Position numbers and translations under genes: made by a program
Notes under the pieces: generated by a model
What the model saw: the letters and a program-made list of their open reading frames with translations, nothing else
What the model was told of the DNA's origin: nothing
The model's database searches: none
From: an uncultured Acidobacteriota bacterium
Lineage (GTDB): Bacteria > Acidobacteriota > Thermoanaerobaculia > Gp7-AA8
Direction of reading: 5' to 3'
DNA: 64,000 bases
NCBI GenBank assembly: GCA_963793695.1
Contig: CAWCBB010000008.1
Span: 6,833 to 70,832 of the forward strand
Shown here: piece after piece, positions 12,497-32,100 of the stretch
Numbering within the stretch: the stretch's first letter is position 1
Layout: each line of letters begins with the position of its first letter

Positions 12497-12525
12497 AAGG
12501 CCGGCTTTTTCGAGAGGCGCGTGCG
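12497..12525. terminator. probable bidirectional intrinsic terminator hairpin (AGCCGGACAAAGGCCGGCT followed by TTTTT)
   Basis: A GC-rich stem-loop with a T-run on the plus strand and CTTTCT on the minus strand, directly downstream of the lipoprotein stop at 12534. Confidence 0.5.
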
Positions 12526-12533
12526 GCGCGGCC

Positions 12534-13301
12534 CTACTGCTGCGATTTCTGCTGGATGTCCTCGAGCGCCTTCTGCGCCTCGCCCGGCTTATCCTCGAAC
12601 TTCGACATCTCGGTCGCGAGGGCGTTGAGAGTGCTCTCGTACTTGGAGAGCAGCTCGCGGTTGGCCTTGACCGAAGGGTCGACCTGCTCCTGCTGCGCCG
12701 CCATCTCTTTGCGGTTCTTGTCGTACTCGGCGAGCATCCCCGCGAGGGCCTTCTTCGCCTCGGCGTCGGTGGCCGCGTCGTGCTGCTTTTTCAGCTCGTC
12801 GTACGCCTGGTCCATCATCGCCTTCGAGCTCTGCTGGAGCGACTCGGTGAACGCCGCGCCGCTCGCCTCGAGCACGCGCTCCTTCACCCACTGGTACTCG
12901 GCGGTGTTGAAGCCCAGCTCGTGCGCGGCGCGAATGTCCGCGGTCAGGAAGTCGGCGGCCGATCCGAGGGCCTTGAACCCCGCCATGACTCCCGCGATCG
13001 ACTTCTCACCCTTCCCCTCGGCCGATTTCGCCTGCTTCTCCATCTCCTTGCGCGCCACCAGAGCGATCGCCTTTTCCTTCTCCCGGACCTTCAGGTACAT
13101 CTGAATCTGAGCGTCGGTCAGCCGGGCGTCGGCCGGGGGATCGTACGAGTCTTCCGACGTTTTCTCGAGAAGCTCCTTCGTTCCGACGTCTTCGAGGTCG
13201 TCGGAAATCGCGGCCTCATCGACCGCCTTCTTGAGTTTGCATCCAGTGGGGACGAGAAGAAGGAGAAGCAGCCCGAGGGCGAGAGCGATGGAACGACGCA
13301 T
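12534..13301 (-). CDS. hypothetical lipoprotein (lipobox LLVPTGC), charged and coiled-coil-rich
   Basis: MRRSIALALGLLLLLLVPTGCKLKK... The ORF is clean and 255 aa long. Confidence 0.75.
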   Translation of the reverse strand: MRRSIALALGLLLLLLVPTGCKLKKAVDEAAISDDLEDVGTKELLEKTSEDSYDPPADARLTDAQIQMYLKVREKEKAIALVARKEMEKQAKSAEGKGEKSIAGVMAGFKALGSAADFLTADIRAAHELGFNTAEYQWVKERVLEASGAAFTESLQQSSKAMMDQAYDELKKQHDAATDAEAKKALAGMLAEYDKNRKEMAAQQEQVDPSVKANRELLSKYESTLNALATEMSKFEDKPGEAQKALEDIQQKSQQ

Positions 13302-13363
13302 GGATTGATTCCTCCAAATAAGTCACAAAAGTCTACTGAAGCTGCTTCGGGCGTTCAAGCAGC

Positions 13364-14467: not shown

Positions 14468-14549
14468 CGATCTTCCTTCGAGATTGGCTGGAGGTCAGTA
14501 TCGCACCCGGGGCGGGCGGGGGAAAGGGGAGGGGGGGCAGAGGCAGAGA

Positions 14550-14680
14550 CAAATGCAAAATGCAAAATGCAGAATGCAAAATGAAAAATGCAGAAAGGGC
14601 CCGCGCGACGGTCAGGCCGCGCCCGGCGTGCTCTCGCCCGTTTTTGGACTTTTCATTTTGCATTCTGCATTTTGCATTCG
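14550..14680. repeat. heptamer array family A: inverted pair (AAATGCA)n ... (TGCATTT)n with a 40-nt GC-rich spacer
   Basis: The left arm caaatgcaaaatgcaaaatgcagaatgcaaaatgaaaaatgcagaaaggg and the right arm ccgtttttggacttttcattttgcattctgcattttgcattcg would form a stem of about 30 bp. Confidence 0.8.
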
Positions 14681-14697
14681 TGCGCGGAGCACACGTT

Positions 14698-14988
14698 CTA
14701 TGGGCCGTCATCCTGGCGCAGAACGACCACCGTCGCTCCCCACCCTCCGCCGCTGGCGTCGGCGTCGGCGTAGCTCTCGACGAACTCGAGGCGCTCGAGC
14801 AGGCTGCGGAGGATCCGCCGCTGCACCCCCATGCCTCTGCCGTGGATCAGCCGCACCTGCCGGAATCCCTTCGCCCGCGCCGCCTGGAGGTACTCGCTCG
14901 CCACATCCGCGACCTCGGCGGGACGGAACGGATGGAGGTCGATCGCGTCTTCGATCGGAATCTCGATCGGCTCGTCGGGGTCGCGCAT
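14698..14988 (-). CDS. Smr-domain protein, small and standalone
   Basis: [70 protein letters not shown] is the Smr signature (LDLHG...IHGKG). Confidence 0.7.
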
Positions 14989-15136
14989 GGGAGTGGGGGC
15001 GGCGATGATATCGTTCAGGAGCCGCAGGGGGAAGTCGTCCGGGGAAAGGGAGCTCTGGCACGGTCGCCGGTCCCGTTCCCATGCCCCCTTTCCCCTGACT
15101 ACGTTTCCCCGTCCACTCCAAGAGGAACCAACCCAG

Positions 15137-16127
15137 ATGACTACCCTTCTCGAAGAGCTCCAGCGCGTCGGGAGCTTCGAATATACGGCGGAGGACGCCC
15201 GGCGGTTCGAAGAGCTGCACGAAGAGATCCGCGCGCTCAAGAAGGAGCGGAACGCCGTCATCGTCGCGCACAACTACTACCGGCCCGAGATCCTGAAGGT
15301 CGCCGACTTCGTGGGCGATTCGCTCGAGCTCGCGCTGATGGCCTCGAAGGTGACCGAGGCCGACATCATCGATTTCTGCGGCGTCCACTTCATGGCGGAG
15401 ACCGCGAAGATCGTAAACCCCTCGAAGACGGTCCTCCTGCCCAACCTCCTGGCGGGATGTCAGCTCGCCGACTCGGCGCCTGCCGAGGACCTGGCCGCGA
15501 AGATCGAGGAGCTGAAGCGCGAGTATCCCGGACCTGGCCGTCGTCAGCTACGTCAACACGACCGCGGCCGTCAAAGCGCTCTCCACGATCATCTGCACCT
15601 CCGCGAACGCCGCGCGGATGGTCCGCTCGCTCCCGAACCGCAACATCCTCTTCGTTCCCGACCGCAACCTGGCGAACCACGTCGCCGAGCAGGTGCCGGA
15701 GAAGAACATCATTCCGTGGGACGGTTTCTGCTACGTCCATCAGCAGATCACGCCGGGAGAAGTGCAGCGGATCCGCGAGACCGATCCGGATCTGAAGGTC
15801 CTCGTCCACCCCGAATGCCGCCCCGACGTGGCGAGCCTCGCCGACGCGGTCCTCTCCACCTCCGGGATGGTCCGCTATGCGAAGGAGAACGAAGGGAAGC
15901 GCTTCCTCGTGGTCACCGAGTGCGGACTGTCCGACCGGCTCGCGATGGAAGTCCCCGAAAAGCAGTTCCTCAGGGGATGCCGCCTCTGCACCTTCATGAA
16001 GGTGACCACGCTCGAGGACGTCCGCGATTCGCTCAGGCACGTCCGGTACGAGATCGAAGTCCCCGAGCCGATCCGCGTCGAGGCGGAGCGGGCGCTTCGA
16101 GGGATGTTTCAGGTGGAGCAGCGATGA
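15137..16127 (+). CDS. nadA: quinolinate synthase A; one frameshift near nt 15530
   Basis: [20 protein letters not shown]...[28 protein letters not shown]...[13 protein letters not shown], then [15 protein letters not shown]...[11 protein letters not shown]...VHPECRPDV in a second frame. Confidence 0.85.
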
Positions 16128-16585
16128 GCGGCGCGCGGGCCGCGGAGCACGTGGAAGATCACGTTCCGCTCGAGGGGATCCGCGAGACGATCGAGATGGT
16201 CGTCTCGAGCCATGGAGGAGAAGTCCTCGATGTTTCGGCGCCCGACGCGGTCGCGTTCCGGCTGCCCGTCCGGCAGGGGATCGGCGCGAGCGGCGAGATC
16301 AGCGGGACGATCCGGTGGGAAGGAGATCCGGCGGACGGCGCGCTGCGCATCGTTTCGGACGGCGAGGTCACGCGGCCCCGGTGGTCGCACATCGCCATTC
16401 TCATCGCCGGGACCGTCGGCTCCCTGCTCTTCATCCTCTGGCCGTTCTACCCTGCGCTCGGTCCCGCCTCGTGGGTCGGCGGCGCGCTCGCCTTCGCGGC
16501 GTACTTTCTCACCCTTCGCCGTACCCACGGCGGCACCCTCGCGCGCCTCCTCGGCAACATCGCCGACGCGCAGAGGGAAGAGTAG
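16124..16585 (+). CDS. hypothetical membrane protein (153 aa); ATGA overlap with the nadA stop
   Basis: It sits in the open tail of the 14831-16585 ORF. There are two transmembrane helices ([41 protein letters not shown]). Confidence 0.5.
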
Positions 16586-16648
16586 AAACGTTCTTCGTTC
16601 TTCGTTCGTCGACAACGCCTCCGAGAACGGACCACCGCCCGCGACCGT

Positions 16649-18465
16649 TCAGAACCACGGCGTGGTGATCGCGATCGCGGGGATCGCCGCCACGATCCAT
16701 AGGGCGAGAACGGCGAGAGCCGGCGCCAACCGTCGCTGGCGGACGAGCAGCCAGGCTGCCGCCGGGATGCCGAAGAGAACCACGACGCCGGCGAGGGCCA
16801 CGAGCGGGTTTCCCGAGATCCAGCTCGCGAGCGCGGCGACGATGCCGGCGCCCGCGCCGCTGGCGAGGATCCGCAAAAGTCCGGCGGGGCGTTTCAGCCG
16901 CTTTCGTCCCAACGCGTAGATCGCGGACGCGGCCGCGCTGCAGAGGAGCAGGACGCCCGCCGCCCGCCAGGCGTAGGGAATGAGGACGGATCGAAATTCG
17001 AGGGTGTCCGCTCCCGGAGACTTCCGCAGCGCTTCCATCCCCGCGGCCATTCGCGTGAGGTTTCCGCGCGCTTGTTCGTCCAGGCCCTCGACGCGCACGA
17101 GCTCGTCGAGCGAGGAGAAGGGGGAGGCCTTCTGAATGCGCCGCGCCAGGGGGAGATCCACGCCCGGGATCGTGATGAGGTCGACGAGCGATGCTGCGTT
17201 CAGATCGAACGTGTGAGGTCGCGGCAGACCTCGAAACTGATCGAAGAGCGTCGTTCCGGTCGCGAATCCTTCCGCCGCGAGCCAGATCTCGGGCGGAAGT
17301 TCGAGGCTCTGTCCGGGGAAGACTTCGGCGAGTACCGCGGCGATCGCCGGCGCCTCGTCGGGGAATGCCTCGCCGTAGTCGCGGATCAGGGTCCGCGCAT
17401 CGGCCGCCTTCCGCAGCGCGATCACGTGGAAGATCTTCAGGTAGACGTTCTCCAGAGGCGAGACCTCCTCGGCGGATGTTCCGTATCGCCGTAGAACTCC
17501 GGTTCGCGGTACGTCCGCCGAAGGGTCGGGTCGGTCGCCCACCGCCAGAAGAACGTGCTCATCGCCCCTTCGATCGCGAAGAGCTGGGCCGCCGGACGCA
17601 TCGGTTGCGCCGGATCGCCGAGGATGACGCTCTCCATCAGATAGGCGGGATAGGGATCGCCCGACTCGAGCAGACGCTGCGGCACGTCCGGCTCGCGAAC
17701 GAACGCGTTCCGCTTCACCGCGAAGTAGCGGAGCGCGCGCTCGTCGTTGCTGTACCAGACAGGAAATCCGATGCGCATCCGGCCCACGGACGGGATTCGA
17801 GCGGCCAGCTCGTCGCCGTACTGCTCGAGGTGGCGCGTCGCTGCGTCGTCGAGGTCGCGCGCGCGCGAGAGCGCCCGCGTCTCGGGGGCCGCTCCCGCGT
17901 GGTCCACCGCCATCACCTGGAGATGCTCGGCGAACCCTTCGTCGAACGCGACGTAGCGATCCGTCCTCACCCCGACCGCATGCACCTGGTTCGCGCCGGC
18001 CGTGGCCGGCGCCTCCACGCCGAGCTCGTGGAGAATCGCGTGCGCGAGCTCGTGAGGGAAGATCTGGTCCACGGCCCCGAAGCTGCCGTGAAGAGGCCAC
18101 TCGTGGTGGATGTCGATGAAGGGCGTCCCCGGCTTCTTGAGGTCGCCCAGCCAGAAGCCGTAGCGGGGGAATCCGCCCTCCTCGTTGGACAGCAGGAGGT
18201 ATGCGGGCTCGATCCCGCGCCGCGCCCCGATCTGGAGGAACCGGTAGACCCGGAGCATCTCCGCCGCGACGCCGCGGTCGAGGCTCGCGGCGATGCGCGC
18301 GCTCTCGGTGTGCACCGCCAGCACGGGGAGACCCTCGCGCTCCGCGCCGGTCGGGCTCAGCACGACCAGGAGCGGCGGTTCGGCGACCGGCGCCGCGAAC
18401 GCGGCAGCGGAAGGTGTCGCGAGCGGCAGGATCAGGAGGAGGGCTCCAGCGCGCAGGTCCATCAC
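16649..18465 (-). CDS. secreted or membrane protein with a HExxH motif, a C-terminal helix-hairpin-helix and transmembrane helices; one frameshift near nt 17470
   Basis: Signal peptide MMDLRAGALLLILPLATPSAAAFA. Also ...FPHELAHAILHELG..., and in a second frame LNAASLVDLITIPGVDLPLARRIQKASPFSSLDELVRVEGL (HhH) plus 4 transmembrane helices. Confidence 0.65.
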
Positions 18466-18547
18466 AAACCGAGTACGCAGCGACCGGCCGGATGTTTACA
18501 GCGGGCGAAGAACGAAGAACGCCGAACGAAACGAAGGACGCTTCCCC

Positions 18548-20011
18548 CTACCTCAGCATCACCGTCACCGTCGGACTGACGTTTCCCGTGCGATCGACCG
18601 CGGCTGCCGCAATGGCGACGGGGATCGTCCCGAGAGGGATTTCGCGCAGCTCGCCGGAGACGACGTCCGTGACCCAGCGGCCCCCGACGAGCGCGCGGAT
18701 GACCCAGAACTGCGGCGAATCCGGCTCGCCGGGCGAGATGCCGACCGAGCGGCTGATGTCGTTCCACGTCAGCATCGGAGGCGCCGGCGGCGCGTCGTCG
18801 AGCCAGGGGGAGGAGGGGACGAGGGCCGGCTCGGCATAGAGCGTATCGGCGAGCCGCGTGCCCAGGGCCGCCCGGTCCTCGAGATACGGTTTCATGCTGT
18901 AGTGAATCGTCCCGGCGGCCCCCAGCTCGCGCGCGGAGGCGATCTGATGGAGGATCTCCTCGGGATAGAACGCGGTGCGCGAGCCGTTCGCGACCCGGCT
19001 CGGGGCGATGCCGGGCCAGACGTGACGCCGCTTCGGGTTTTGGTCGAGCCACCATCGGAGAAGGGTGGGGAAGCTCCGCACGGGATCCGCGATCGGCCAG
19101 TAGAGCTGAGGCGCGAGATAGTCCACCCATCCCTCTTCGAGCCATCGCTTCGAGTCCGCGTAGATCCCGCTCCAGGCGTCGAACCCTTCGGAGCCCGGCG
19201 GGCTCCCCGGGCGCCAGATTCCGAACGGCGAGACGCCGAAGCGGACGGTCGGCTTCGCGCGGTGGATCTCGGCGCCGAGCTCGCGGATGAGCCGATCGAC
19301 GTTCTCGCGGCGCCAGTCCTCGCGGGACTGCCGCCCGCCACCGGCGAGGTACTTCTGCCACGACGGCTCGTCGGGGAAATCGATCCTCGTGCCGTCGGCT
19401 GCGTTCTCGGGATAGGGGTAGAAGTAGTCGTCGAGGTGGATCCCGTCGACGTCGTAGCGGCGCGTGACGTCGACGACGACCTCGACGGTGCGCCGCCGAA
19501 CCTCATCCTCGCCCGGGTCCATCCAGAGATACGGGCCGTACTCGCGCACGAGCTGCGGCGAGGCCAGGGAGACGTGGTCCGCGGAGGGAGGAAAGAGCGG
19601 CTCGGTGTGGCGGGCACGGTAGGGATTGAACCAGGCGTGAAGCTCGAGCCCTCGCTCGTGCGCCTTCTGAATCGCGAACGCCAGGGGATCCCATCCGGGA
19701 TCCTCTCCCATCTTCCCGGAGAGGAACTCCGACCACGGCTCGATCCGCGAGCGGTACAGCGCATCGGCTGCGGGGCGGACCTGGAAGATGACGGCGTTGA
19801 AATTCAGCTCCTTCGCCCGGTCGAGGAGAGCGAGCAGCTCGCCCTGCTGCTCGTCCCGGCTCAGCCCCGTCCGCGAGGGCCAGTCGATGTTCTTCACCGT
19901 CGCCACCCAGACGCCGCGAAACTCGCGGGCCATCGGCGGGAGCGGAGCGACGGGGGGAGGGGCGCTCGAGCAGGCCGCGAGAAAGAGAACGAGGGGGAGG
20001 AGGCGTTTCAT
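18548..20011 (-). CDS. glycoside-hydrolase-like family 10 (GHL10/YngK-type TIM barrel) lipoprotein
   Basis: MKRLLPLVLFLAACSS... (lipobox), then FRGVWVATVKNIDWPS...NFNAVIFQVRPAADALYRS..EPWSEFL...HAWFNPYRA...GIHLDDYFYP. The ORF is clean. Confidence 0.8.
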   Translation of the reverse strand: MKRLLPLVLFLAACSSAPPPVAPLPPMAREFRGVWVATVKNIDWPSRTGLSRDEQQGELLALLDRAKELNFNAVIFQVRPAADALYRSRIEPWSEFLSGKMGEDPGWDPLAFAIQKAHERGLELHAWFNPYRARHTEPLFPPSADHVSLASPQLVREYGPYLWMDPGEDEVRRRTVEVVVDVTRRYDVDGIHLDDYFYPYPENAADGTRIDFPDEPSWQKYLAGGGRQSREDWRRENVDRLIRELGAEIHRAKPTVRFGVSPFGIWRPGSPPGSEGFDAWSGIYADSKRWLEEGWVDYLAPQLYWPIADPVRSFPTLLRWWLDQNPKRRHVWPGIAPSRVANGSRTAFYPEEILHQIASARELGAAGTIHYSMKPYLEDRAALGTRLADTLYAEPALVPSSPWLDDAPPAPPMLTWNDISRSVGISPGEPDSPQFWVIRALVGGRWVTDVVSGELREIPLGTIPVAIAAAAVDRTGNVSPTVTVMLR

Positions 20012-20027
20012 GGATGGGATAGTGTAA

Positions 20028-20172
20028 TTGCAGATTGCAGATTGCAGATTGCAGATTGCAGATTGTTTTTCCTCCAAAGCGGCGATGGGACTTTGAGGAT
20101 CGGGCACCGATCAGTGATGATGGATGGGGTCGAGGGGTTTCAATCTGCAATCTGCAATCTGAGATCTGCAAT
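20028..20172. repeat. heptamer array family B: (GCAGATT)x5 ... 72-nt spacer ... (AATCTGC)x4
   Basis: ttgcagattgcagattgcagattgcagattgcagattg at 20028-20066 and caatctgcaatctgcaatctgagatctgcaat at 20141-20172. It lies between the GHL10 start (20011) and tRNA-Leu (20180). Confidence 0.8.
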
Positions 20173-20269: not shown

Positions 20270-20502
20270 AGACGAGTCTAGATCGCGAGTCTGCCAAGCA
20301 GTCAAGAGTCGAAGAGAATGAAGAATCTGGAGTCCGGGAGAGGATGATGAGCGGCGGTCCGCCGGCGGATTCGACGATCTGCACTCGGCAATCGTCATTC
20401 GGGCACGTGTGCTGGACCGATCATTCTGACATTCTGCAAAATTCTGCGAATGCGACCGGCGCCGCGGAGGCTCCCCGTCCGGCCCCCAGGAGGCACCTCT
20501 CG

Positions 20503-21682
20503 ATGAGCACCGAAGCCCGCGCCGGAACCGGCGCACCCCTCACGCTGCTTTCTGAAGAAGAGACGATGTTCCAGGAGAGCGTGCGGGACTTCGCGATCGA
20601 GAAGATCCGCCCGCTCGTTCACGACATGGACGAGAAGGCGACGATGGATCCCGGGCTGATCCGGAGCTTCTTCGAGCTCGGCGTCATGGGGATCGAAGTT
20701 CCCGAGACGTTCGGCGGGGCGGGATCGACGTTCTTCAACGCGGTCCTCGTCGTCGAGGAGCTCTCCCACGTCGACGCGTCCTGCGGCGTCCTCGTCGACG
20801 TCCAGAACACGCTCGTCAACAACGCCTTCCTCCGCTGGGGGAACGACGAGCAGAAGGCGCGCTACCTGACCAGGCTGACCCGCGACACGATCGGCGCCTA
20901 CGCCCTCTCGGAGGCCGGCTCCGGCTCCGATGCGTTTGCGCTCGCCACGCGCGCCCGCCAGGACGGCGGCGACTGGGTCCTCGAACGGGCAGAAGCTCTG
21001 GATCACGAACGCCGCCGAGGCGGGGGTGTTCATCGTCTTCGCCAACGCGAACCCCGATGCCGGGTACAAGGGGATCACCGCGTTCCTGGTCGAGCGCGAC
21101 TTCCCGGGCTTCACCGTCGGCAAGAGAGAAGACAAGACCGGCATCCGCGCCTCCTCGACCTGCGAGCTGATCCTCGACAACTGCCGCGTCCCGAAGGAAA
21201 ACGTCCTCGGCGAGGTCGGGAAGGGCTACAAGATCGCGATCGAGACGCTCAACGAAGGGCGCATCGGGATCGGCGCGCAGATGATCGGCGTCGCGCGGGG
21301 CGCCCTCGAGCACGCGATCGCCTACTCGAAGGAGCGCAAGCAGTTCGGCAAGCCCATCTCCGAGTTCCAGGGCGTCCAGTTCCAGATCGCTCAGGCGGCG
21401 ACCGACCTCGAGGCGGCCCGGCTCCTGGTCTACAACGCCGCGCGGCTCAAGGACGCCGGCCGGCCGTTCGTCCGCGAGGCCGCCATGGCCAAGCTCTTCT
21501 CCTCCCAGGTCTGCGAGCGCGTGACCTCCGTCTGCGTCGAGATCTTCGGCGGCAACGGCTACACCAAGGAGTACCCCGTCGAGAAGTTCTGGCGCGACTC
21601 GAAGATCGGCGCGATCTACGAAGGCACCTCCAACATGCAGCTGGCGACCATCGCGAAGACGGTGCTCACCGACAGGCTGTAG
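20503..21682 (+). CDS. acyl-CoA dehydrogenase (short/branched-chain type); one frameshift near nt 20985
   Basis: The start follows AGGAGG and reads [37 protein letters not shown]. The second frame reads ...[17 protein letters not shown]...[24 protein letters not shown]...IYEGTSNMQ. Confidence 0.85.
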
Positions 21683-22125
21683 GGAGCTCGCTGGGACCGG
21701 CTGCGCCGGTCCGTTTCTGGTGTGTCAACCGGCGCGGGAAACGGACCGCCACAGGCGGCCCCTCCACCCGGGCAAGAAAAATATTGCGAAATTCCTCACG
21801 AAAACCTACCATGAATTTGCCCATGAAAACCTGCGGTGCCCCTCCCGGTAATATGCGGACGTCCCGGTGGGTCTTCGTGTGCGCCTCGCGCGTCGTCATC
21901 GCTGAAGGCTCTTTGACATAGTCGACCAGTTCCCGCTCCTCCCCTCCACCCGGGGTGAGAAGGAGCGGCCGATCCGGTCCGCGGCATTCGGTGTGGTGGG
22001 TCACGTTGCTAGCGCGTGATACTTCGGTCGCGGGTCCGCCGGAAATACAAGGGGGAGGAGGTACTGCGTTCGATGAGTGATCACAAATCCAAGGAGGGTC
22101 GGAGTTCCTGACTCTCCTACCCCGA

Positions 22126-22151
22126 AGGGCGCCGGCGACGGCGCCCTTTTT
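22126..22151 (+). terminator. intrinsic terminator (GGGCGCCGGCGACGGCGCCC followed by TTTTT) with no annotated gene upstream
   Basis: A perfect GC stem with a T-run. It is preceded by a second hairpin (ggagggtcggagttcctgactctcc) and about 440 bp of apparently non-coding DNA after the ACAD stop. Confidence 0.55.
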
Positions 22152-22162
22152 ACGTCTAGGGG

Positions 22163-22274
<112 letters not shown>

Positions 22275-22330
22275 AGGTTGGCTGCTCACAGATCTGGCAG
22301 CGAAGCAACCCTCCGTCGACTGCTCCCTGC

Positions 22331-23019
22331 CTACTCCCCCAGGATCGCGTCGGCGCCCGGCGCCTTGAGGTAAAGGCGCCCCACGGCGAGGTCGTCGCTC
22401 CGTACCCTCGCGCGCGGGCCGTGAAGCCCTTCACCCTCAGCAGCGCCACCTTCTTGTAGTGAATCGTGTTCAGCTCCACGTAGACGGGGGTTCCCGCGAA
22501 CCGGCTCACCATGGCGGCCGCCGGCTTCGAGATCGTTCCGGCGAACTCGAGCGCGAGCCGCTGGTACTGCGGGTTTTTCGGGATCGCCGTCGTCGTCCAA
22601 ACGTCCATCGACGACTCCGGCCCCAGCTGGATTCGGTAGCGGAGAGCTTCCAGCCCTCCCACCTTTCCTTTGACCGGCGCGGCGACGGGAAACTCCCCCA
22701 TGCCCGGCATCACTTCCCCCTCGGCGTGCGCGAGCGTGAGGAGCATCGACCGGATCTTCGGGAGCGCCACGTCCGCGTAGAGGCGCGAGAGCGGGCTCAG
22801 GACCGTCACGTGCGGGTCGCCGTTCCGGCTGAACGCGCGGAGGAGAGGGGCCTTCGCCGCGACGCCTCCGGGGTAGAGCGTGATCTCGACCGAGCCGAAT
22901 TTCGAAAGGAAAGGAAACGGGGCGGCGGGGTTCGCCTCGAGCTCGAGCCGGTAGCCGGCGGCCATGAGGGTCGATGGGAGGAGAAGGATCGCGAGGAAGG
23001 GGAGGATGACGCGGTTCAT
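22331..23019 (-). CDS. hypothetical secreted protein; one frameshift near nt 22400
   Basis: Signal peptide MNRVILPFLAILLLPSTLMAAG. There are about 200 aa of clean sequence, then the C-terminus continues in the other frame (DDLAVGRLYLKAPGADAILGE*). Confidence 0.6.
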
Positions 23020-23035
23020 TGTGGAAAGCATACAG

Positions 23036-23338: not shown

Positions 23339-25129
23339 CTAGAACGTCGCGTCGAGGAACGGCCGGAGCTTCTTCGCCCGCGAGGGGTGGCGCAGCTTCC
23401 GCAGCGCCTTCGACTCGATCTGGCGGATCCGCTCGCGGGTGACGTTGAACGAGCGGCCGACCTCCTCGAGCGTGTGCTCGGAGCCCGTCGCCGACGCCGA
23501 AGCGCATCTTGAGGACCTGCTCCTCGCGCGGGGTGAGCGTCTTGAGGACGCGTCGCGTCTGGTCCTGGAGGTTCGAGACGATGACGCGCGTCGATCGGCG
23601 AGACGACGGCGCGGTCCTCGATGAAGTCGCCCAGGTGCGAATCTTCCTCCTCGCCGATCGGCGTCTCGAGGGAGATCGGCTCCTGCGCGATCTTCATGAT
23701 CTTGCGGACCTTGGAGACCGGCATGTCCATCCGCTTGGCGATCTCCTCGGCGTTCGGCTCGCGGCCGAGCTCCTGGACGAGCGAGCGCGAGGTGCGCGTG
23801 AGCTTGTTGATCGTCTCGATCATGTGGACCGGGATGCGGATCGTGCGCGCCTGGTCGGCGATCGCGCGGGTGATCGCCTGGCGGATCCACCACGTCGCGT
23901 ACGTCGAGAACTTGTAGCCGCGGCGGTACTCGAACTTCTCGACCGCCTTCATCAGGCCGATGTTGCCTTCCTGGATGAGGTCGAGGAACTGGAGGCCGCG
24001 GTTCGTGTACTTCTTCGCGATCGAGACGACGAGGCGCAGGTTGGCGACGATCAGCTCCTGCTTGGCCTGGTCGGCCTCCTCCTCGCCCTCGCGGACCTCG
24101 CGGAGCGTCTTCTTGATCGTCCTCGTGCGAGACGCCGAACTTCTGCCTCGAGCTCGCCGAGGCGCTCGCCGGTACTTGGCGATGCGGCGCTTGTAGAAGT
24201 CGCTTGCGGGTGCGGTTCTTCTCCCTCTTGAGCGACTGCTCGTCCTGGCGGATCTGGGAGTTCGGGCAGCGAGAACTGCGGTCGATGTCCTTGAGGATGT
24301 TGATCATCCGGTTCAGCGTCTGCGGGGTGAAGTCGACCGCGCGGATCAGCTTCGCCATCTCGCGAGAGCTTCTCGATCTGTTTGACGAGCCCGGCGGGCT
24401 GCGGGGCTTCTTGGCGGCCTCGATCAGCTTCGCGCTGGCTGTCCTTGATCTTCTCGGTCGAGCTTGCGCGATCTTCTTGAAGATCTTCGAGGATCTCCTC
24501 GATCTTGTTGAGGTTCTTCGCGTCGTTCGGATCGTCTTCCTCGTCGTCCGCGAGCGCGAGGTCGATCATGTCCTTGATGACCTTCGTGGTCCTTCTTGGC
24601 GTTCTCGAGACGGAGGATCTCTTCGAGAACGATCCGGTTCTTCGAGAGCGCCTGGTAGATCCTGCCCTCGCCCTGCTCGATCCGCTTGGCGATTCGACCT
24701 CGCCCTCGCGGTCGAGGAGCTTGACCGTCCCCATCTCGCGCAGGTACATGCGCACGGGGTCGTTCGTCTTCTCGATCAGCCCGGCGGCCGCCGCGGCGAT
24801 CTCCGCCTGGATCTCTTCCCGCTCGCTGACTTCCTTGTCCTCGACCCCATCGGTCGGGCTTCTTTCGGCTCGGGGATCTTGTCGACGTCGTCGACGACCT
24901 CGATCCCGACGTCCGCGAAGCGGATGTAGATCTCGTCGAGCTCTTCCGGGGTGCTGGTTACGTCTTCCGGGAGGATCTCGTAGATCTCGTCGTAGAGCAG
25001 GTATCCCTTTTCCTTGCCGATCGTGATGAGCTGTTTGACTTCCGGGTATTTGTCTTCGACGCTGAGCTCGCCAGCCTCATCGTATGAAGATTCCAGATCG
25101 AGATCCGTTGTCCGCAGACGGGTGCTCAT
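23339..25129 (-). CDS. rpoD: RNA polymerase sigma-70 (primary sigma factor); about 6 frameshifts
   Basis: Segments in three frames: [49 protein letters not shown] (region 1.1), [21 protein letters not shown] (region 1.2), [46 protein letters not shown] (region 2), MRFGVGDG, and [41 protein letters not shown] (region 4). Confidence 0.8.
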
Positions 25130-25295: not shown

Positions 25296-27044
25296 TTATT
25301 TCAGCGGGTGAAGCCGTCGGGAGAGCTCGATTTTTTCGCGATCCAGCGCCTGCTCCCGCTCCCCGTCTCCAGCTTCGCGCATTGCCTTGATCTCTGAAGT
25401 GATTTCCTTCAGTCGGCGGTCCAGAAAGCGTCGCTCCATCAGACGGACGGTGTCTCCGATTGAATTTGGTGAGTCGAGCTCCTTCTCGTCAGGCGCGATG
25501 GCAAGTTCGGAGAGTCTCGTCAGCTGCGATTCCCCCCTAAGATCGGTCGCAATCACAGAAAAATCAAGGGGTTGGCCCTCGCGCGCCCGCTCGGCGACCG
25601 CTCGGAAGATCGACCGGCAGTCGGCGTCGTCGAAATACTCCTCCCGGAGGTCCGCCAGCTCGCGCTTCGGGTCGGCGGCGTGGAGCAGCGCCCGGAGGAC
25701 CTCTTTCTCCCCGGTGGAGACCGGCGCGACGACCCCCTTCTCCCGCGAGCCCGCGTCGGGACCTCCCCCCGTCCGGACGCGCGACCAGACCGACGAGAAC
25801 TCCAGCCCCATCCGGTCGGCGACGCGTTGCGCGGCGTCATTCCGGAGGACCGGGTCGGACACGGCCGCGACGAGAGGGACGAGCGCCTCGACGGCCTCGC
25901 TCTTTTCCGCGCCTCGCATCGCCGCGGGATTCGGGGCGATGCGCCGCAGCGCGAAGTCGAAGACGTCGTCCGCGTTGCCGAGCAGCTCGATGAACGCGTC
26001 GAGCCCTTTCTTCCGGAGGAAGGTGTCGGGATCCTCGGAGGCGCCGACGTCGACCACCTCGACCTGCAGCCCCGCCGACAGCAGGATCGGAGCCGCCCGG
26101 AGCGTCGCGCCGCGTCCCGCCTCGTCGCCGTCGTAGGCGACCACGACCCGCTTCGCGAGGCGGCGCATCATCGCGGCCTGGCCGGTCGTGAGCGAGGTCC
26201 CCATCGAGGCGACCACCCCGTCGATCCCGGCGTTGTCGAGCGCGATGCAGTCGAAATATCCCTCGACGAGGATCGCTCGATCGAGCCGCCGCATCGCGTC
26301 GCGCGCGCGATGGAGGTTGTACAGGAGCCGCGACTTGTTGAAGATCTCCGACTCGGGCGAGTTGAGGTATTTCGGGTCGCTCCCGTCGAGCGTCCGCCCC
26401 CCGAAGCCCACGATGCTCCCGCCCTCGGAGTGGATCGGGACGATCAGCCGGTTGCGGAACCGGTCGTAAAAGCCGTCGCCGCTCTTTCGCGGCAGGACCA
26501 GCCCCGCCTCCTCCAGCTGCCTGGGCTGGAACTTCCGCCCCAGCCGCTTGAGGATGTAGTCCCACGAATCGGGCGCGTAGCCGAACCCGTACTTCCGCCA
26601 CAGCTCGGGGTCCACCTCGCGCTTCGTGAGATAGCTTTCCGCCGCGTTCGGCGTCCAGCCCAGCGCCTGATGGAACGCGCCCGCCGCTTCCTCGATCGCC
26701 TCGAGAAGGTTCTCCTTCCCGCTCTCGGACGCCTTCTCCTTCCGGCGGGGGAGCGCGATCCCCGCGCGGGTCGCGACGTACTCGACGGCCTCGGGGAAGG
26801 TGTACCGCTCGGTCAGCATCACGAACTTGAAGACGTCGCCCCCCGTGCCGCAGCCGAAGCAGTAGAAGAACCCTTTGTCCCGATCGACGTGGAACGAGGG
26901 GGTCTTCTCGCGGTGGAAGGGACAGAGCCCCTTGTGGCTCTTCCCCGCCTGCTTCAGAGGCGTGTGCTGCGAGATGATGTCGACGATGTCCGCGGCGCCG
27001 CGCACCTGCGAGATGATCGCGTCATTGAGATCGACGAAGGCCAT
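25296..27044 (-). CDS. dnaG: DNA primase
   Basis: A clean 582-aa ORF with a Zn finger (CPFHREKTPSFHVDRDKGFFYCFGCGTGGDVFKFV), a TOPRIM domain (LVEGYFDCIAL...VVAYDGDEAGRGA) and a C-terminal helicase-binding domain. Confidence 0.9.
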   Translation of the reverse strand: MAFVDLNDAIISQVRGAADIVDIISQHTPLKQAGKSHKGLCPFHREKTPSFHVDRDKGFFYCFGCGTGGDVFKFVMLTERYTFPEAVEYVATRAGIALPRRKEKASESGKENLLEAIEEAAGAFHQALGWTPNAAESYLTKREVDPELWRKYGFGYAPDSWDYILKRLGRKFQPRQLEEAGLVLPRKSGDGFYDRFRNRLIVPIHSEGGSIVGFGGRTLDGSDPKYLNSPESEIFNKSRLLYNLHRARDAMRRLDRAILVEGYFDCIALDNAGIDGVVASMGTSLTTGQAAMMRRLAKRVVVAYDGDEAGRGATLRAAPILLSAGLQVEVVDVGASEDPDTFLRKKGLDAFIELLGNADDVFDFALRRIAPNPAAMRGAEKSEAVEALVPLVAAVSDPVLRNDAAQRVADRMGLEFSSVWSRVRTGGGPDAGSREKGVVAPVSTGEKEVLRALLHAADPKRELADLREEYFDDADCRSIFRAVAERAREGQPLDFSVIATDLRGESQLTRLSELAIAPDEKELDSPNSIGDTVRLMERRFLDRRLKEITSEIKAMREAGDGEREQALDREKIELSRRLHPLK

Positions 27045-27059
27045 GGCGAGTAGTCAGGG

Positions 27060-27437
27060 AGCAGTAGTCAGGGGGAAGGGTACAACGGACGAAATCGCCG
27101 TTGGAAACGGATGAAGCCGCGGCAGGATTTCGAGGGCTGGTTCCGGGCCTGCAGGTTGAAGCGATCCGACGTGACGGCTCCCTCACGGGGAGGCCGGAGC
27201 TCGCCTGGTGTCGGAATGGCGCGAAACTGCTATGCGCGTCAGCGCGCGATCGACTTCACGAGCGAACTCATTGCTGCGGTAGCGCTCCGCTCAAGATACC
27301 AGTCTGTCGCGAGCAGCAACTCGGCTCTCGCTGAGGGATGAAAGCTAACGCTTCTCTCTTGTTTCGATACCAAGCCCGTTCGTGTTCGATTTCGAAGGGA
27401 CAGCGCGCCTCTTCGAAGAATCGAAGACGCGGGCTCA
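27060..27437 (-). pseudogene. ParE/RelE-family toxin-like gene, badly frameshifted (multiple indels)
   Basis: The minus strand from ATGA at 27437 reads MSPRLRFFEEARCPFEIEHERAWYRNKREALAF.. Fragments such as AELLLATDWYLER and EILPRLHP resemble the ParE core and its ..EILRVLHGARD C-terminus. Coordinates are approximate. Confidence 0.35.
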
Positions 27438-27673
27438 TCGATCAGATCGGTAGAGCTGGGCGCGAAGCTCTTGCCAGGAGACCGTCTTCACGCGTCCTGC
27501 GTCGAAACTCAGCCATTCGGTTCTCGACCTCGGACTGCCCATGCCTGCTCGATCTCGTCGGTTGGTCCGCTGCCCTCGTCGAGACTTTCGAGAAGAAGCG
27601 CCTCAAGTTCCGCCCGGTCTTCGGGTGCCAGCTCCGATGCGCGTTCGTACAGGTCTTGGATCGCCCGGTTCAT
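27435..27673 (-). pseudogene. addiction-module antitoxin-like small protein (TIGR02574-type) with 2 frameshifts
   Basis: MNRAIQDLYERASELAPEDRAELEALLLESLDEGSGPTDEIEQAWA in one frame, .EVENRMAEF in a second, and DAGRVKTVSWQELRAQLYRSDR* in a third. The stop overlaps the downstream toxin-like ATG. Confidence 0.45.
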
Positions 27674-27853
27674 GCTCGCATTCTACTCGCGCGCTCGGAT
27701 GATCGGCCAGGCCGCCCAACGGTTTGCCGCTGAGCCGCGGCCACCGCGCGCGAGAAAGTATAGATCTCGGAAGGCAGTAACGCAGCGGTTGGCGCGCGGT
27801 GCAGCGGCCGAGTTCGACGCAATGGCCTTAAGGTAAGCGATGGTTTCGACGAC

Positions 27854-28073
27854 GATGTCATCCCGAGCCCTCACGTCGCGCTTCGCGCTCCTCAGGGCAG
27901 GCTCCGCGAGGGATCTGGGCGGGTGGGTTACGCGTGACGCGGCACCGAAGCACGGCGGCAGGATCGAGATTCGCCTGCGATCACGAAGCGAATGCCGATC
28001 CTGCCTGCCCTGCACCGGCGCCGCGTTCTTTCGCAGCCCCCGCCCAGATCCCTCGCGTACGCTCGGGATGACA
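27854..28073. mobile_element. second, inverted copy of the MITE-like element (termini GATGTCATCCCGAGC... / ...GATCCCTCGCGTACGCTCGGGATGACA)
   Basis: It has the same 28-bp termini as 12185-12366. The interior is about 70% similar (acgcgtgacgcgg...gcgaatgccg...ccctgcaccg.cgc.gcgttctt). Confidence 0.6.
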
Positions 28074-29164
28074 GCTTCGACGGGCAACTCGCGTTAAGTT
28101 AAGGCCATTGGAGTTAGACGGCGCCCACATGCCTCGTGGCCTCTTCGCGTCGGTTGAGATAAACAGCTACCGCAGGTAGAACCGACCAGGGCGAGAACCA
28201 CATAGAACATCGCTGAGATACCGGAATGACGACAAAGAGCTGCGTGACCGTAACCGAGATACAGGCCGCAGTAGAAGCAGTCGTACAGTGCAAGCGGCGC
28301 GCTGAGAGTTGCAGCGCCAGACCGAGCTCGCTCGCGAAACCGGGGCTGATTGGAATCGGAAGAATGCTGCCGGTGACCGCGCCGAAACGCTGCGTCCGGA
28401 ATCGCTTCTAACGGCGTGGGCACGGCATTTTGGCGGGCCGCGGCCCCTGCAAGCGATCGAGTTAGCGGTGACCTGCACTTCCCCTTCTCGGCCTCAGGAA
28501 GGCTCCCACGGAGTCGCGCACCGGTACCAATGGGGCGACGAAGAAGGCGGGAGCGCGTCGCCCGCAGCGCAGGATCGCCTGGAGAGCGCAGGGACTGCAG
28601 GCTGAGCCGCGATCCTCGCGGAGCCTCCCCGAGGGGCGGCACGATAGGCCGGCGACGGCGAAAGCATCTACGCGCGCTAGAACGCCGGTCGCAGCCACCA
28701 TGAAGCGCTCCAAACCGCGGAATACGGGAACGGAAGCGTGTAAACGGTCAGAGCAGAAGGCCACCGCAGCTCCGCCATCCTGGACCTGAGCGTTCACCTG
28801 CGCGATGGTGCCGGCAGCATAGGTGAGAAGCAAGGAGCCAGCGTCGCAGCTCAGCGTTCTGCCCGCCGGTCATGCTGCGCGAATTAGGCCGTCGTCTGGT
28901 CAGTGCGATTGGTCGGCCTGACTATTCATCCATGGATTACCGGGACCGAGGATATCTGGGACGAGTTGTGCCACGTGTATCCTCGGAGGCCCTGATTCGA
29001 AGATTCTACCGCTACCAGTTCAGCTGGTGAGGGTTCCGGTGGGGCGACGAGCTCGTCGTTCGGGTCTGTTCGGACCGATTCGGTCGCGTATCCCGTCGCC
29101 GGCGGAGCGGGCGCGGTGGGGCCGGGCAGTCGATCCGCCGGCCGCACTTCCCGGCCGCGGGTTC

Positions 29165-29292
29165 GTTCCTCACTTGCGTGTAGATCAGGTCGTCGTCAGA
29201 TCGGCGTGTCGAGAAGCTTCTGGACCGTCAGGATGTCGTACCGGTCCTCGTGTGCTGCGCGATGACGTCCTTCGGTTCGCGGAAAACGAGAG
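29165..29292 (-). pseudogene. tyrosine recombinase (phage-integrase family) C-terminal fragment, 5'-truncated and frameshifted
   Basis: The minus strand reads ..GRHRAAHEDRYDILTVQKLLDTPI* and, one frame over, DDDLIYTQV. This matches the ..RHTfA..L...G.DI.TVQ.LLGHsd..TT.IYTHV box II/catalytic Tyr region. Nothing upstream, because the mutS2 stop is at 29315. Confidence 0.4.
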
Positions 29293-29294
29293 GC

Positions 29295-29317
29295 CGGGCG
29301 CGCGCAGCGCGCCCCTA
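29295..29317. repeat. REP-like palindrome GGGCGCGCGCAGCGCGCCCCTAC, overlapping the mutS2 stop codon
   Basis: An exact 23-mer, also at 46844-46866 and, reverse-complemented, at 1908-1930. Confidence 0.7.
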
Positions 29318-31681
29318 CACGTCCATGAACACGATCGTCGCGCCATCTCCCCCTTCATTCGGGTTCCCCGGCCGGAATGACCGCACGCCCGCGTGCTTCT
29401 TGAGCTGCTCGCGAAGCGCGTTCCGCAGCGCGCCGGTGCCGTGGCCGTGGATGAGGCGGACGGCTCCGCGTCCCGCGAGGAGCGCCTGGTCGAGGAACTT
29501 TTCGACTTCGTCGATCGCGTCGTCGACGCGCCGCCCGATCAGGTTCAGCTCGGCCGACACGGCCGGCTCCTCTTCGCTCGAGTCGAGCCGCACGCTGGAG
29601 CGAAGGGCCGTTTTCGCTTTCGGTTTGCTGTCGCTGGGACGGAGGTCTTCGAGCGACGCGTGCATCTTCTTGCCGGCGACGGCGAGGGTGACCTTCGTGC
29701 CGTCGATCGAGAGGATGTCGCCGGTGAAGCGAAGCGTCCTGTGCTCGGCGCGGTCTCCGACCTGGAGAGGGCGGGCGGAGGTCTCCTCGCGCGGCTCGGC
29801 GCGGTCGATCGGAAGCGTGACACTCTCGAACGACGTCTTCGCGTCCGCCTTCTTTCTCTCTTCCTTGTCGAGCTCCTTGAGGCGGCGGAGCTCCGCCTGC
29901 AGATTCCGCGAGACCTCCGCGCGCACGCGGTCCATCTCGTCCCGCCATTTCGATGCGAGCTTCTTTTTCTCTTCGGTCACGGCTGCGAGCTCCCGCTCGA
30001 GCTCGCGCTGCCGTTTCTCCATCGCCCCTTCCGCCGCCGAGAGCTCCTCGCGCCGCCGCACGACGTCCGCGAGACCTTTCTGCAGCTCGCCGACCATCTG
30101 GTCGATGTCGCCGTACCACCCGCCGAGCTTCTCGCGCGCCCGGTCGACGACCGCGCGAGGCATCCCCATCATCGATGCGATCTCGATCGCGCGGCTCCGC
30201 CCCGGAACGCCGGGGAGCATCCGGAAGGTCGGCCGCCCCGACTCGCCGTCGAACTCCATCGAGGCGTTCGCGACGCGGGGATCGCCGACCGCGAAGCTCT
30301 TGACCGCGGCGAGATGCGTCGTGACGACGAGCAGCGACCCGACGTCGAGGACGTGCTCGATGACCGCGGCGGCCAGCGCGCCCCCTTCCTCCGGATCGGT
30401 CCCCGACCCGAGCTCGTCGAGAAGGACGAGCGAGCGGTCGGTCGCGCGCGCGATCATGCGGCTCAGGCGGACGAGGTCTGCCGAGAAGGTCGAGAGGTGC
30501 TCCATCACGCTCTGGTCGTCGCCGATCAGCACGTGCACGTCGTCGACGATCGGGACGATCGATCCGTCCGCGGCGGGGAGAGGAAGACCCGAGAGGGCCA
30601 TCGCGGTGAGCAGCCCCGCGGTCTTGAGCGCGACCGTCTTTCCTCCCGCGTTCGGCCCGCTGATGACGAGCGCCGGCTTGTCCGGGGTCAGCTCGATCGA
30701 GGTCGGGATCACGCGCTGGGGGCTGTCGCTGTCGCCGAGGACCGAGCGGCGGAGCTCGGCGAGGCGCTCGTCGAGGAGCGGATGGCGCGCCTGGATCAGC
30801 CGCATCTCCCTCGCCTCGCTGAACGCCGGCCGGACCGAGCCGAGGATCGACCCGGTGATCGCCGCGGCCTGGATCGCGTCGAGCTCTCCGCCGAGCCGCG
30901 TCGCGTCGAGGATCTCGTCGCGCGCCGCGAGAAGGAGCTGGGCGAGGTGCCGCATGATCCGGACGATCTCCTCGCGCTCCTGGATGAGCAGATCCGCGAG
31001 ATCGTTGTTGAGCTCGACCGCCCCCATCGGCTCGATGAAGAAGGACGCGCCGGAGCCGGAGCGGCCGTGGAGGATGCCGGGGACTTCGCTCCGCCTCTCC
31101 GCCTTCACCGGCACCACGTACCGGTCCGCGCGGAGGGTGACGATCGGCTCCTGCAGCGCGTCCGCGTGGCGCGTCAGCACGTCGGCGAGCGCGCGCTGGA
31201 TCTGCGCGCGCTTCTGCTGCATGCGCGTCCGGATGCTCCGGAGCTCCGCGGAGGCTTCCTCTCGCAGCTTGCCGTCCTTCGTGAAGAAGCGGCCGACGGC
31301 GGAGGAGACCGCCCCCAGGTCGGGGATCGCCGAGGCGATCCGATGGAGGCGGGGAAGAGGGGGATCGAGGCGGGTCAGCGTTTCGCGAAGAGCCTGCGTC
31401 GCGCGGATCGAGCGGAGGACCTGCCACGAGTCTTCGAGCTCGAGCGCTTCGCGCGCGAGGATCGGCTCCGGGTCGATCAACCCGGCGAGCGGCACCTGCC
31501 CCTCGGTATGGTAGAAGCGGGTCATCTCCGCGAGCTCCCCCTGGAGGCGCTCTGCCTCGTCGAGGGAAGCCGCGGGACGGCGGGCGAGGAGCGCGCGTTT
31601 GCCGGGCCCGGTTCGCGCCTGCGCGGCGACCAGCTCGAGGACGCGATCGAATTCGAGGGAGCGGAGGCCTGAATCAGTCAT
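29315..31681 (-). CDS. mutS2: endonuclease MutS2 (MutS domain with a C-terminal Smr domain)
   Basis: A clean 788-aa ORF with a Walker A (LVISGPNAGGKTVALKT) and a C-terminal Smr (LNLIGRRVDDAIDEVEKFLDQALLAGRGAVRLIHGHGTGALRNALREQL). Confidence 0.9.
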   Translation of the reverse strand: MTDSGLRSLEFDRVLELVAAQARTGPGKRALLARRPAASLDEAERLQGELAEMTRFYHTEGQVPLAGLIDPEPILAREALELEDSWQVLRSIRATQALRETLTRLDPPLPRLHRIASAIPDLGAVSSAVGRFFTKDGKLREEASAELRSIRTRMQQKRAQIQRALADVLTRHADALQEPIVTLRADRYVVPVKAERRSEVPGILHGRSGSGASFFIEPMGAVELNNDLADLLIQEREEIVRIMRHLAQLLLAARDEILDATRLGGELDAIQAAAITGSILGSVRPAFSEAREMRLIQARHPLLDERLAELRRSVLGDSDSPQRVIPTSIELTPDKPALVISGPNAGGKTVALKTAGLLTAMALSGLPLPAADGSIVPIVDDVHVLIGDDQSVMEHLSTFSADLVRLSRMIARATDRSLVLLDELGSGTDPEEGGALAAAVIEHVLDVGSLLVVTTHLAAVKSFAVGDPRVANASMEFDGESGRPTFRMLPGVPGRSRAIEIASMMGMPRAVVDRAREKLGGWYGDIDQMVGELQKGLADVVRRREELSAAEGAMEKRQRELERELAAVTEEKKKLASKWRDEMDRVRAEVSRNLQAELRRLKELDKEERKKADAKTSFESVTLPIDRAEPREETSARPLQVGDRAEHRTLRFTGDILSIDGTKVTLAVAGKKMHASLEDLRPSDSKPKAKTALRSSVRLDSSEEEPAVSAELNLIGRRVDDAIDEVEKFLDQALLAGRGAVRLIHGHGTGALRNALREQLKKHAGVRSFRPGNPNEGGDGATIVFMDV

Positions 31682-31893: not shown

Positions 31894-32100
31894 TCAGTAG
31901 TTCGTTCGCCGGTCTTCCGCGAGCTTTCTGAGAACTTTCTTGCGCGCCGCGATCGCTTTGCGCTTTCTCTTTTCGCTCGGCTTTTCGTAGTGCTGGCGTT
32001 TCTTGAGCTCGGAAAGGACTCCGGACTTTTCGCACTTGCGCTTGAATCGGCGGAGTGCGTTCTCGAACGACTCGTCTTCTTTGACGTGTACGAGAGGCAT
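31894..32100 (-). CDS. rpsU: 30S ribosomal protein S21
   Basis: [55 protein letters not shown]. Confidence 0.9.

Follow-up and report, generated by a model that had tools for sequence, protein, structure and literature searches.

Probable remnants of acquired selfish DNA in the spacer between mutS2 and dnaG of an uncultured Thermoanaerobaculia bacterium

In bacteria of the Escherichia coli type, the genes rpsU, dnaG, and rpoD make up the macromolecular synthesis operon, and divergence upstream of dnaG is described for Gram-positive bacteria as well (PMC2824700). Two further systems bear on the locus described here. Type II toxin-antitoxin (TA) modules that combine a ParE toxin (PF05016) with a PF09720/TIGR02574 antitoxin are arranged as antitoxin-first operons with overlapping stop and start codons. 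Integron integrases (IntI; TIGR02249) are defined by an additional, IntI-specific domain near patch III (the intI_Cterm profile; PMC4889954), and intI pseudogene remnants and In0-type loci are a known phenomenon (Cury et al. 2016, PMC4889954). The present analysis concerns a stretch of 64,000 nucleotides (nt), hereafter the window, from an uncultured Acidobacteriota bacterium of the Thermoanaerobaculia (GCA_963793695.1, contig CAWCBB010000008.1, positions 6,833 to 70,832), and in particular the spacer between its mutS2 and dnaG genes. Judging from sequence comparison, horizontally acquired DNA amounting to about 2.2 kb, with parts of a TA module and of a tyrosine recombinase gene, has probably entered this spacer and since decayed to non-coding sequence.

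The spacer runs from the dnaG start (27044) to the mutS2 stop codon (29315-29317) and measures 2270 bp (27045-29314). Synteny and spacer length were compared across at least 13 relatives. In ten of them the same spacer is 164-353 bp long; in another (locus L005) it reaches 813 bp and has a DUF1499 gene within it, and in two distant genomes it is only 5-20 bp. An extra stretch of about 2 kb between conserved genes, as proposed in an earlier note on this DNA, was thus borne out against most Thermoanaerobaculia relatives, and none of the relatives compared has a spacer of this length with intact genes in it. Nor does the spacer of the window resemble any relative's spacer or locus content, including in a blastx search against all open reading frames (ORFs) of 80 related loci. 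The comparison therefore supports the presence here of some 2 kb that the nearest sampled relatives are without. The nearest relatives by DnaG are metagenome-assembled genomes with 72-76% identity, and a metagenome scan with MutS2 returned three loci only, all distant.

With regard to gene order, tblastn searches of the window proteins against the fetched loci found udk-rpsU-mutS2-dnaG-rpoD in every Thermoanaerobaculia relative, and the distant Acidobacteriota loci L018, L041, L064, and L066 still keep mutS2-dnaG-rpoD. Because this order is conserved, mutS2 is native at the locus and no part of any insertion. The locus resembles the E. coli-type operon in the adjacency of dnaG and rpoD and in having rpsU nearby on the same strand, but differs in that mutS2 natively lies between rpsU and dnaG. 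The earlier view that rpsU and dnaG are normally contiguous is therefore wrong for this lineage; its rpsU-dnaG "operon" natively includes mutS2, and synteny expectations derived from E. coli are misleading here.

The features between dnaG and udk, in the order of their coordinates, are as follows; REP stands for repetitive extragenic palindrome and MITE for miniature inverted-repeat transposable element.

25296-27044, minus strand: dnaG, verified (TIGR01391)
26961-26981 (5' coding part of dnaG) and 29249-29269 (recombinase remnant): 21-nt direct repeat, 19/21 identical (repeat D2)
27049-27076: tandem pair of 14-nt units, AGTAGTCAGGGAGC, immediately before the dnaG start (direct repeat D8)
27158-27343, minus strand: weak second ParE-like remnant, tentative, FHPSARAELLLATDWYLERS..EFAREVDRALTRIA.., with frame changes
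27353-27438, minus strand: N-terminal stub of the cognate ParE-family toxin, about 26-35 codons, from frameshift-aware alignment and DNA homology
27438-27673, minus strand: TIGR02574/PF09720 antitoxin gene, broken into three frame segments (27536-27673, 27505-27534, and 27438-27503)
27674-27737, minus strand: region ahead of the TA module, presumed to hold its promoter and conserved at intact homologous loci (DNA homology)
27820-27836 and 28094-28110: outer palindrome around the MITE, CAATGGCCTTAA / TTAAGGCCATTG
27854-28073: MITE-like palindromic repeat with terminal inverted repeats GATGTCATCCCGAGC...GCTCGGGATGAC, within 27812-28122
28123-29111, no strand: anonymous non-coding DNA, about 1 kb
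about 29112-29275, minus strand: 5'-truncated C-terminal stub of an integron-integrase-like tyrosine recombinase, from frameshift-aware alignment
29295-29318, minus strand: REP-like 24-nt unit, CGGGCGCGCGCAGCGCGCCCCTAC, which holds the mutS2 stop codon (CTA, 29315-29317)
29315-31681, minus strand: mutS2, verified (TIGR01069, 716 bits)
31894-32100, minus strand: rpsU, verified
beyond rpsU: udk, flanking gene, verified

The near absence of coding capacity that had been noted for the spacer was confirmed by codon periodicity. The three-base periodicity of its guanine-plus-cytosine (GC) content (mean best-phase GC 0.72, phase difference 0.18) equals that of the shuffled spacer (0.718 and 0.164), the values for dnaG and mutS2 being 0.89-0.91 and 0.44-0.45. 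Only the antitoxin (0.78 and 0.31) and the integrase stub (0.77 and 0.28) rise above the shuffled level. A six-frame Pfam scan of 27000-29400 yielded weak matches only, to Smr at the mutS2 end and to the antitoxin; a search of the phage database gave no match, and a promoter and terminator scan stayed at chance level. The spacer has a GC content of 0.637, compared with 0.671 for both the window and dnaG and 0.699 for mutS2, so that its description as lower-GC DNA is correct, but the drop is modest and other intergenic stretches are equally low.

Compared with all the intact homologous loci, the antitoxin gene of the TA remnants contains exactly two inserted single bases, one near 27535 and the other near 27504. 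When the three segments are joined, the resulting 78 amino acids match the full PF09720 model (E=9.7e-13, 48.4 bits, cut-off 23.3) and the full TIGR02574 model (37.2 bits, cut-off 31.9), while the single-frame ORF alone reaches 17.8 bits and falls under the cut-off. The joined protein is 86% identical, over 100% of its length, to intact 77-amino-acid proteins, and on the contigs that encode these the antitoxin is followed in an operon by a 100-amino-acid partner that matches PF05016 ParE above the cut-off. At the DNA level, 27353-27737 is 81-84% identical over 363-388 nt to three of the loci (L082, L084, and L085), and 27435-27692 is 87% identical to a fourth (L083). As in type II modules, the antitoxin comes first and the toxin start overlaps its stop codon (ATGA).

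The toxin gene is truncated. Its DNA homology stops at 27353-27356, about 26 codons in. In a frameshift-aware alignment, the N-terminal part (27438 to about 27302) scores 112 against the L084 toxin, with shuffled sequences at 43.5+-4.7 and 0/200 reaching that score, while the C-terminal 61 amino acids of the toxin give no match (36 vs 37.9 for shuffles). The stretch thus encodes only the first 35 or so residues of the cognate toxin and no full-length PF05016 domain; the C-terminal two-thirds are deleted. The module differs from described type II systems in this cut after 26-35 codons and in the two 1-nt insertions of the antitoxin ORF, which may be assembly errors. A second ParE-like stretch further towards dnaG aligns, with several frame changes, to residues 7-66 of a standard ParE (L082, 3329-3625); its score of 66 is marginal against shuffles at 45.0+-5.8, of which 2/200 reach it, and no Pfam or PDB match and no codon periodicity were found for 27158-27343. 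The toxin peptides had no match in Pfam, NCBIfam, or PDB. Of the TA system that had been predicted at 27060-27673 from the sequence (a ParE/RelE-like toxin with a TIGR02574-like antitoxin), the antitoxin and the N-terminal toxin stub are therefore solid, and the second stretch, which is marginal and lacks any profile match to ParE, is not.

The same PF09720/ParE module occurs elsewhere in non-integron contexts, and the contigs L082-L085 carry no attC cores. One of them, the metagenomic contig L082 (GCA_964476845.1), holds two PF09720/ParE modules 2.4 kb apart (3114-3628 and 6001-6533), whose two toxin types are the same two types as those whose remnants, the second of them tentative, appear fused in the window.

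The earlier note took heavy frameshifting as a sign of decay. Frame changes are indeed present, but in this contig they are unreliable, as two essential genes show. On the minus strand, rpoD (23339-25129) has no intact ORF and at least seven frame jumps in its translation. Alignment with three relatives revealed, apart from a few 3-nt gaps that keep the frame, 16 indel runs (13 of 1 nt, two of 2 nt, and one 1-nt run at 24855 with ambiguous alignment), concentrated in 24119-24860. Third-position GC is nevertheless 0.85-1.0 per segment, and the core protein is 96-97% identical to that of the relatives. Likewise, alaS (about 49660-52100, plus strand) is broken many times over all three frames and keeps strong codon periodicity, and an acyl-CoA dehydrogenase gene (about 20491-21720, plus strand), also strongly periodic, has one frame change near 20970. 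Both dnaG and mutS2 are free of such indels. Further patches in which the phase switches lie at about 2600-4800, 11086-11775, 15136-16530, and 54391-56670. Because essential genes are rich in indels yet undamaged in codon structure, the damage to rpoD is almost certainly patchy assembly or consensus error and not decay. It follows that frameshifts in this contig cannot serve as evidence of pseudogenization and that pseudogene calls made from them are unsafe; many of the frameshifts in the spacer, too, may be assembly errors. The evidence for decay lies instead in the truncations (the 5' end of the integrase gene and the C-terminus of the toxin) and in the loss of periodicity.

The same observations raise the question of whether all or part of the spacer is chimeric or wrongly joined, mobile DNA of other community members having been collapsed into the contig in an error-prone metagenome or long-read assembly. 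The patchy 1-nt indels in rpoD and alaS, with codon periodicity perfectly kept, would fit such an artefact. So would the frequency of indels in the antitoxin (2 in 236 nt) and the integrase stub, which is similar to that in rpoD, and the absence of the exact DnaG sequence from the public collection searched. We consider an artefact improbable, however: both ends of the spacer carry native-looking features (the REP-like unit and the 14-nt repeats) that are continuous with the flanking genes, the spacer contains a MITE of the window's own family, and the truncations and the loss of periodicity are unlike indel noise as it appears in rpoD and alaS.

At the other end of the spacer, next to mutS2, lies the recombinase stub. 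The profile and BLAST searches that had been proposed for the integrase and for ParE detected neither in their standard form. No match to the recombinase peptide was found in Pfam, NCBIfam, or PDB, and neither the translated frames nor the reconstructed fragment matched the catalytic domain PF00589, even at E<=10. In a tblastn search of plasmids with the integrase peptide, no integrase was among the matches. A six-frame concatenate of 28075-29314 gave nothing at E<=10 against 5.8 billion proteins, and the corrected integrase peptide, searched against the same set, yielded one candidate and no match. Because a single-frame tblastn of IntI1 against the window was not significant either (18.5 bits), a frameshift-aware dynamic programme that aligns protein with DNA, with shuffled controls, was written. 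The IntI1 C-terminal sequence used as the query was verified as 100% identical in at least 5000 annotated intI1 genes, and the full gene is present in L081.

With this method, the C-terminus of IntI1 scores 77 at 29127 on the minus strand, while shuffles within the spacer give 34.9+-4.3 and never exceed 51; the stub is the top match, as the next-best IntI1 score on both strands of the whole 64 kb is 46. Against IntI1 residues 292-335 the score is 85. The traceback reads YDILTVQKLL / HADLTTT / IYTQVRNEPAAG V R-PADRLPGPTA in the window and YDIRTVQDLL G HSDVSTT M IYTHVLKVGGAG V RSPLDALPPLTS in IntI1, with three frame changes across 43 residues. About 50 of some 320 codons are kept in all, with these three frame changes and small deletions, and the peptide can be written as RH..H..YDILTVQKLL(G)HADLTTT(M)IYTQV...GVR-PADRL. 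Short, frameshifted stubs that profiles miss can thus be demonstrated rigorously by combining frameshift-aware alignment with shuffling.

The type of recombinase was assessed with the last 60 amino acids of three recombinases as queries. The IntI of Gemmatirosa kalamazoonensis scored 88 (z=12.9), IntI1 scored 74 (z=9.6), and E. coli XerD scored 58 (z=5.3); the XerD alignment ends at IYTHV, unlike the two IntI alignments, which continue through the GVRSPLD tail. The stub is accordingly closer to IntI than to recombinases of the XerC/XerD type. In addition, the only plasmid DNA match of the spacer (29165-29242, 77.5% identical, E=1e-4) is to a gene on G. kalamazoonensis plasmid 1 that is itself an integron integrase (TIGR02249, 423 bits). 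The stub is like integron integrases in the box II region and tail (YDIRT[VI]Q.LLGH.DV.TTMIYTHV....G.GV.SP.D) and in having a TIGR02249-positive gene as its best DNA and protein match. It differs in keeping only some 15% of the gene, in having no recognizable attC or attI, and in its position between housekeeping genes of a Thermoanaerobaculia genome. The missing 5' 85% includes the IntI-specific domain near patch III. The stub is hence best described as closest to the C-terminus of an integron-type recombinase. A 5'-truncated tyrosine-recombinase C-terminus, which had been read from the letters at 29165-29292, is clear from frameshift-aware alignment at about 29112-29275, although no standard profile search picked it up.

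This affinity suggests a more specific origin, namely that the spacer is the relic of a small "inverted" chromosomal integron, in which an intI stub points at a co-oriented, eroded cassette array. The stub would then be the remnant of intI, the DNA downstream of it an eroded attI and cassettes, the TA module one of the cassettes, and the palindrome that the MITE divides a dead attC site. An intact parallel is found in the closest identifiable relative, G. kalamazoonensis plasmid 1 (locus L091, NZ_CP007129.1 835000-875000), a large integron whose record is unannotated in the plasmid collection searched. Its intI gene lies at 21828-22787 on the minus strand, and at least 25 highly similar attC sites of about 97 nt occupy 596-20148. 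Every one of these sites is downstream of the 3' end of intI, which is the inverted architecture (PMC4889954), and a PF09720/ParE TA cassette (10267-10805) on the intI strand forms part of the array.

The window has the same geometry, with the stub followed downstream by co-oriented TA remnants, and a group of inverted integron integrases has been described (PMC4889954). The palindrome upstream of the TA module starts, on the minus strand, with the canonical R'' box GTCTAAC (28116-28122), and the outer palindrome, without the MITE, resembles an attC site in its arrangement. If the locus were such a relic, it would mirror the intact plasmid integron with its at least 25 cassettes. On the other hand, a regular expression for the cores found no RYYYAAC...GTTRRRY pair in 26900-29500, and a covariance model (R1) derived from 19 attC sites of Gemmatirosa retrieved only generic hairpins (E>=0.03). 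The 3' box of the one degenerate candidate palindrome is GTCGAAC and not GTTAGAC, there is no attC after the TA module, and the same module occurs elsewhere outside integrons. With the IntI-specific region missing, IntI membership itself cannot be demonstrated. An integron relic thus seems rather unlikely. A tblastx comparison of the spacer with the Gemmatirosa array returned many short, scattered matches, which were read as GC-rich noise and disregarded.

The earlier note had pictured the region as the scar of one integrated element with an integrase and TA cargo. In this picture, a phage-type integrase would have integrated a single island at a specific site, and the island would then have decayed. 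That the remnants are all co-oriented and lie within DNA that relatives are without would agree with it, and so would the 19/21 direct repeat near both ends (26961-26981 and 29249-29269). Local alignment gives the repeat a score of 32 (shuffles, 17.4+-2.3), with no extension past 21 nt; it could be due to chance, a microhomology, or an att-like core. One copy, however, lies in the recombinase remnant and its partner 64 nt within dnaG, an arrangement that does not match simple attL and attR sites. The recombinase belongs to the integron type and is not a phage or island integrase; recombinases of the integron type are not known to integrate islands. A tRNA or tmRNA target is lacking, and the one real tRNA of the window is at 20180. 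Of the features by which genomic islands are recognized, absence from relatives is therefore present, while the integrase is a stub, no tRNA is near, and the single repeat is oddly placed. We regard a single island as very improbable. The note was right about acquired and decayed selfish DNA; given an integron-type recombinase, with neither a clear att site nor an attC or tRNA landmark, it is an assumption that one island of "integrase plus cargo" existed and that the integrase stub and the TA module were ever parts of it. ARAGORN also reported a "tRNA-???" with a 4-base anticodon at 26072-26165 (minus strand), inside dnaG, which has no Rfam support and is probably a false positive.

About 1 kb between the recombinase stub and the MITE (28123-29111) is anonymous. 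It shows no codon periodicity, no protein match at E<=10 in a six-frame search of 5.8 billion proteins, no Rfam match at gathering or E-value thresholds, and no similarity to the relatives' loci, and its RNA folding is not unusual (z=+1.2 and +0.3). An ORF of 182 amino acids (28094-28642, minus strand) had one weak match among 1.84 billion representatives, which was judged to be spurious and due to a low-complexity stretch of the query.

The MITE reported at 27854-28073 is real. It is small (220 nt) and non-coding, has terminal inverted repeats, and occurs in a second copy of 182 nt at 12185-12366, whose 38-nt terminal repeats are 95% complementary. Relative to that copy, the one in the spacer has an internal insertion of about 36 nt. 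Its DNA folds into a hairpin at -112 kcal/mol (z=-10; inverted repeats I1, I2, and I7). The sequence TTCGACG lies on both sides of the spacer copy, 2-3 nt off the termini, and a check for target-site duplications found none comparable at the other copy. Related elements are present in the same spacer of two relatives (L009 and L012). The repeat is like the Acidobacteriota family of MITEs with GTCATCC(C/T)GAGC termini in its length (about 180-220 bp), its long terminal repeats, and its non-coding and multicopy nature; it differs in having no clear target-site duplication, in the ~36-nt insertion, and in being nested in a palindrome, with two copies in the window.

Relatives carry various sequences at the same position. 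The spacers of L001, L003, L004, L006, and L008 contain tandem repeats, with units of 7, 8, or 14 nt, in inverted arrays, and those of L009 and L012 contain palindromic elements of the GTCATCC(C/T)GAGC type. Since relatives have differing repeats, MITEs, or a gene at this spot, the mutS2-dnaG site appears to be tolerant of insertions and a hot spot for repeats.

Both ends of the spacer look native. The palindrome noticed at the mutS2 stop codon was confirmed as part of a 24-nt unit with three identical copies in the window (29295-29318, 46843-46866, and 1908-1931, the last reversed). It has an 8-bp GC stem with a 3-nt loop (29296-29314) and a fold that is unexceptional for its composition (z=0.07), and at 29295 and 46843 it provides or adjoins, in the same register, the TAG stop codon of a minus-strand gene. 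"REP-like" is a fair name for it, and the unit marks where the spacer natively ends next to mutS2. At 1908 and 46795, a related palindrome, GTAGGGGCGCCCTGCGGGCGCC, accompanies the REP-like unit at a distance of about 49 nt. On the dnaG side, the two 14-nt units resemble the arm next to dnaG in L001 and are probably one arm of a native repeat hairpin, and thus the native end there.

Taken with the tolerance of the site, these observations allow the favored history, the uptake and decay of about 2.2 kb of acquired DNA, to be set out in order. The remnants are all on the minus strand. From mutS2 to dnaG, the recombinase stub comes first, adjoining the REP-like hairpin native to mutS2, and is followed by the anonymous DNA, the MITE-like repeat inserted into another palindrome, the PF09720/TIGR02574 antitoxin with its own upstream region, the ParE stub of 26-35 codons, and possibly an eroded second ParE. 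The pieces may have arrived by site-specific or illegitimate recombination into the tolerant spacer, and the MITE may have entered independently. A deletion would have taken the C-terminus of the toxin, perhaps fusing two tandem TA modules, and would have left an orphan antitoxin; loss of the toxin would have ended addiction and permitted further erosion. Nothing in the spacer is likely to be active today. The possible exception is the antitoxin, an orphan at best, which might act if its two 1-nt insertions were assembly errors, as the indels of rpoD and alaS in the window would suggest. Read in this way, the locus would be an ordinary case of a spacer next to essential genes that gathers and erodes selfish DNA, with the toxin of a TA module lost before the antitoxin.

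Several points weigh against this history. The closest available relative has only about 76% DnaG identity and is too distant for the insertions to be dated or put in order. The second ParE remnant is only marginal, and the 21-nt direct repeat near both ends is not accounted for. Finally, the assembly, with its error-prone patches, could account for part of what looks like damage and, conceivably, for the join as well.

Some other features were also observed in the window. Inverted pairs of tandem 7-nt arrays (AAATGCA, ATTGCAG, CGGAGAA, and others) that form long hairpins are found in many of its intergenic regions (23036-23093/23183-23248, 20027-20065/20141-20173, 14544-14607/14636-14693, 35101-35130/35162-35188, 40450-40509/40540-40597, and 48934-48983/48985-49034; also 12441-12481 and 49544-49583). 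The arrays mentioned above in the mutS2-dnaG spacer of L001, L003, L004, L006, and L008 are analogous, with other units, and the whole looks like a lineage-wide intergenic repeat system, perhaps of terminators. The hexanucleotide GCCCGA is repeated 13 times at 22198-22274, between the ORF at 22156-23031 and the DNA upstream, and gives GS/RA dipeptide repeats in the overlapping ORFs. At 6764-9410, three to four tandem units of about 651 bp, 89% and 72% identical to the first, probably belong to a gene for a repeat-domain protein.

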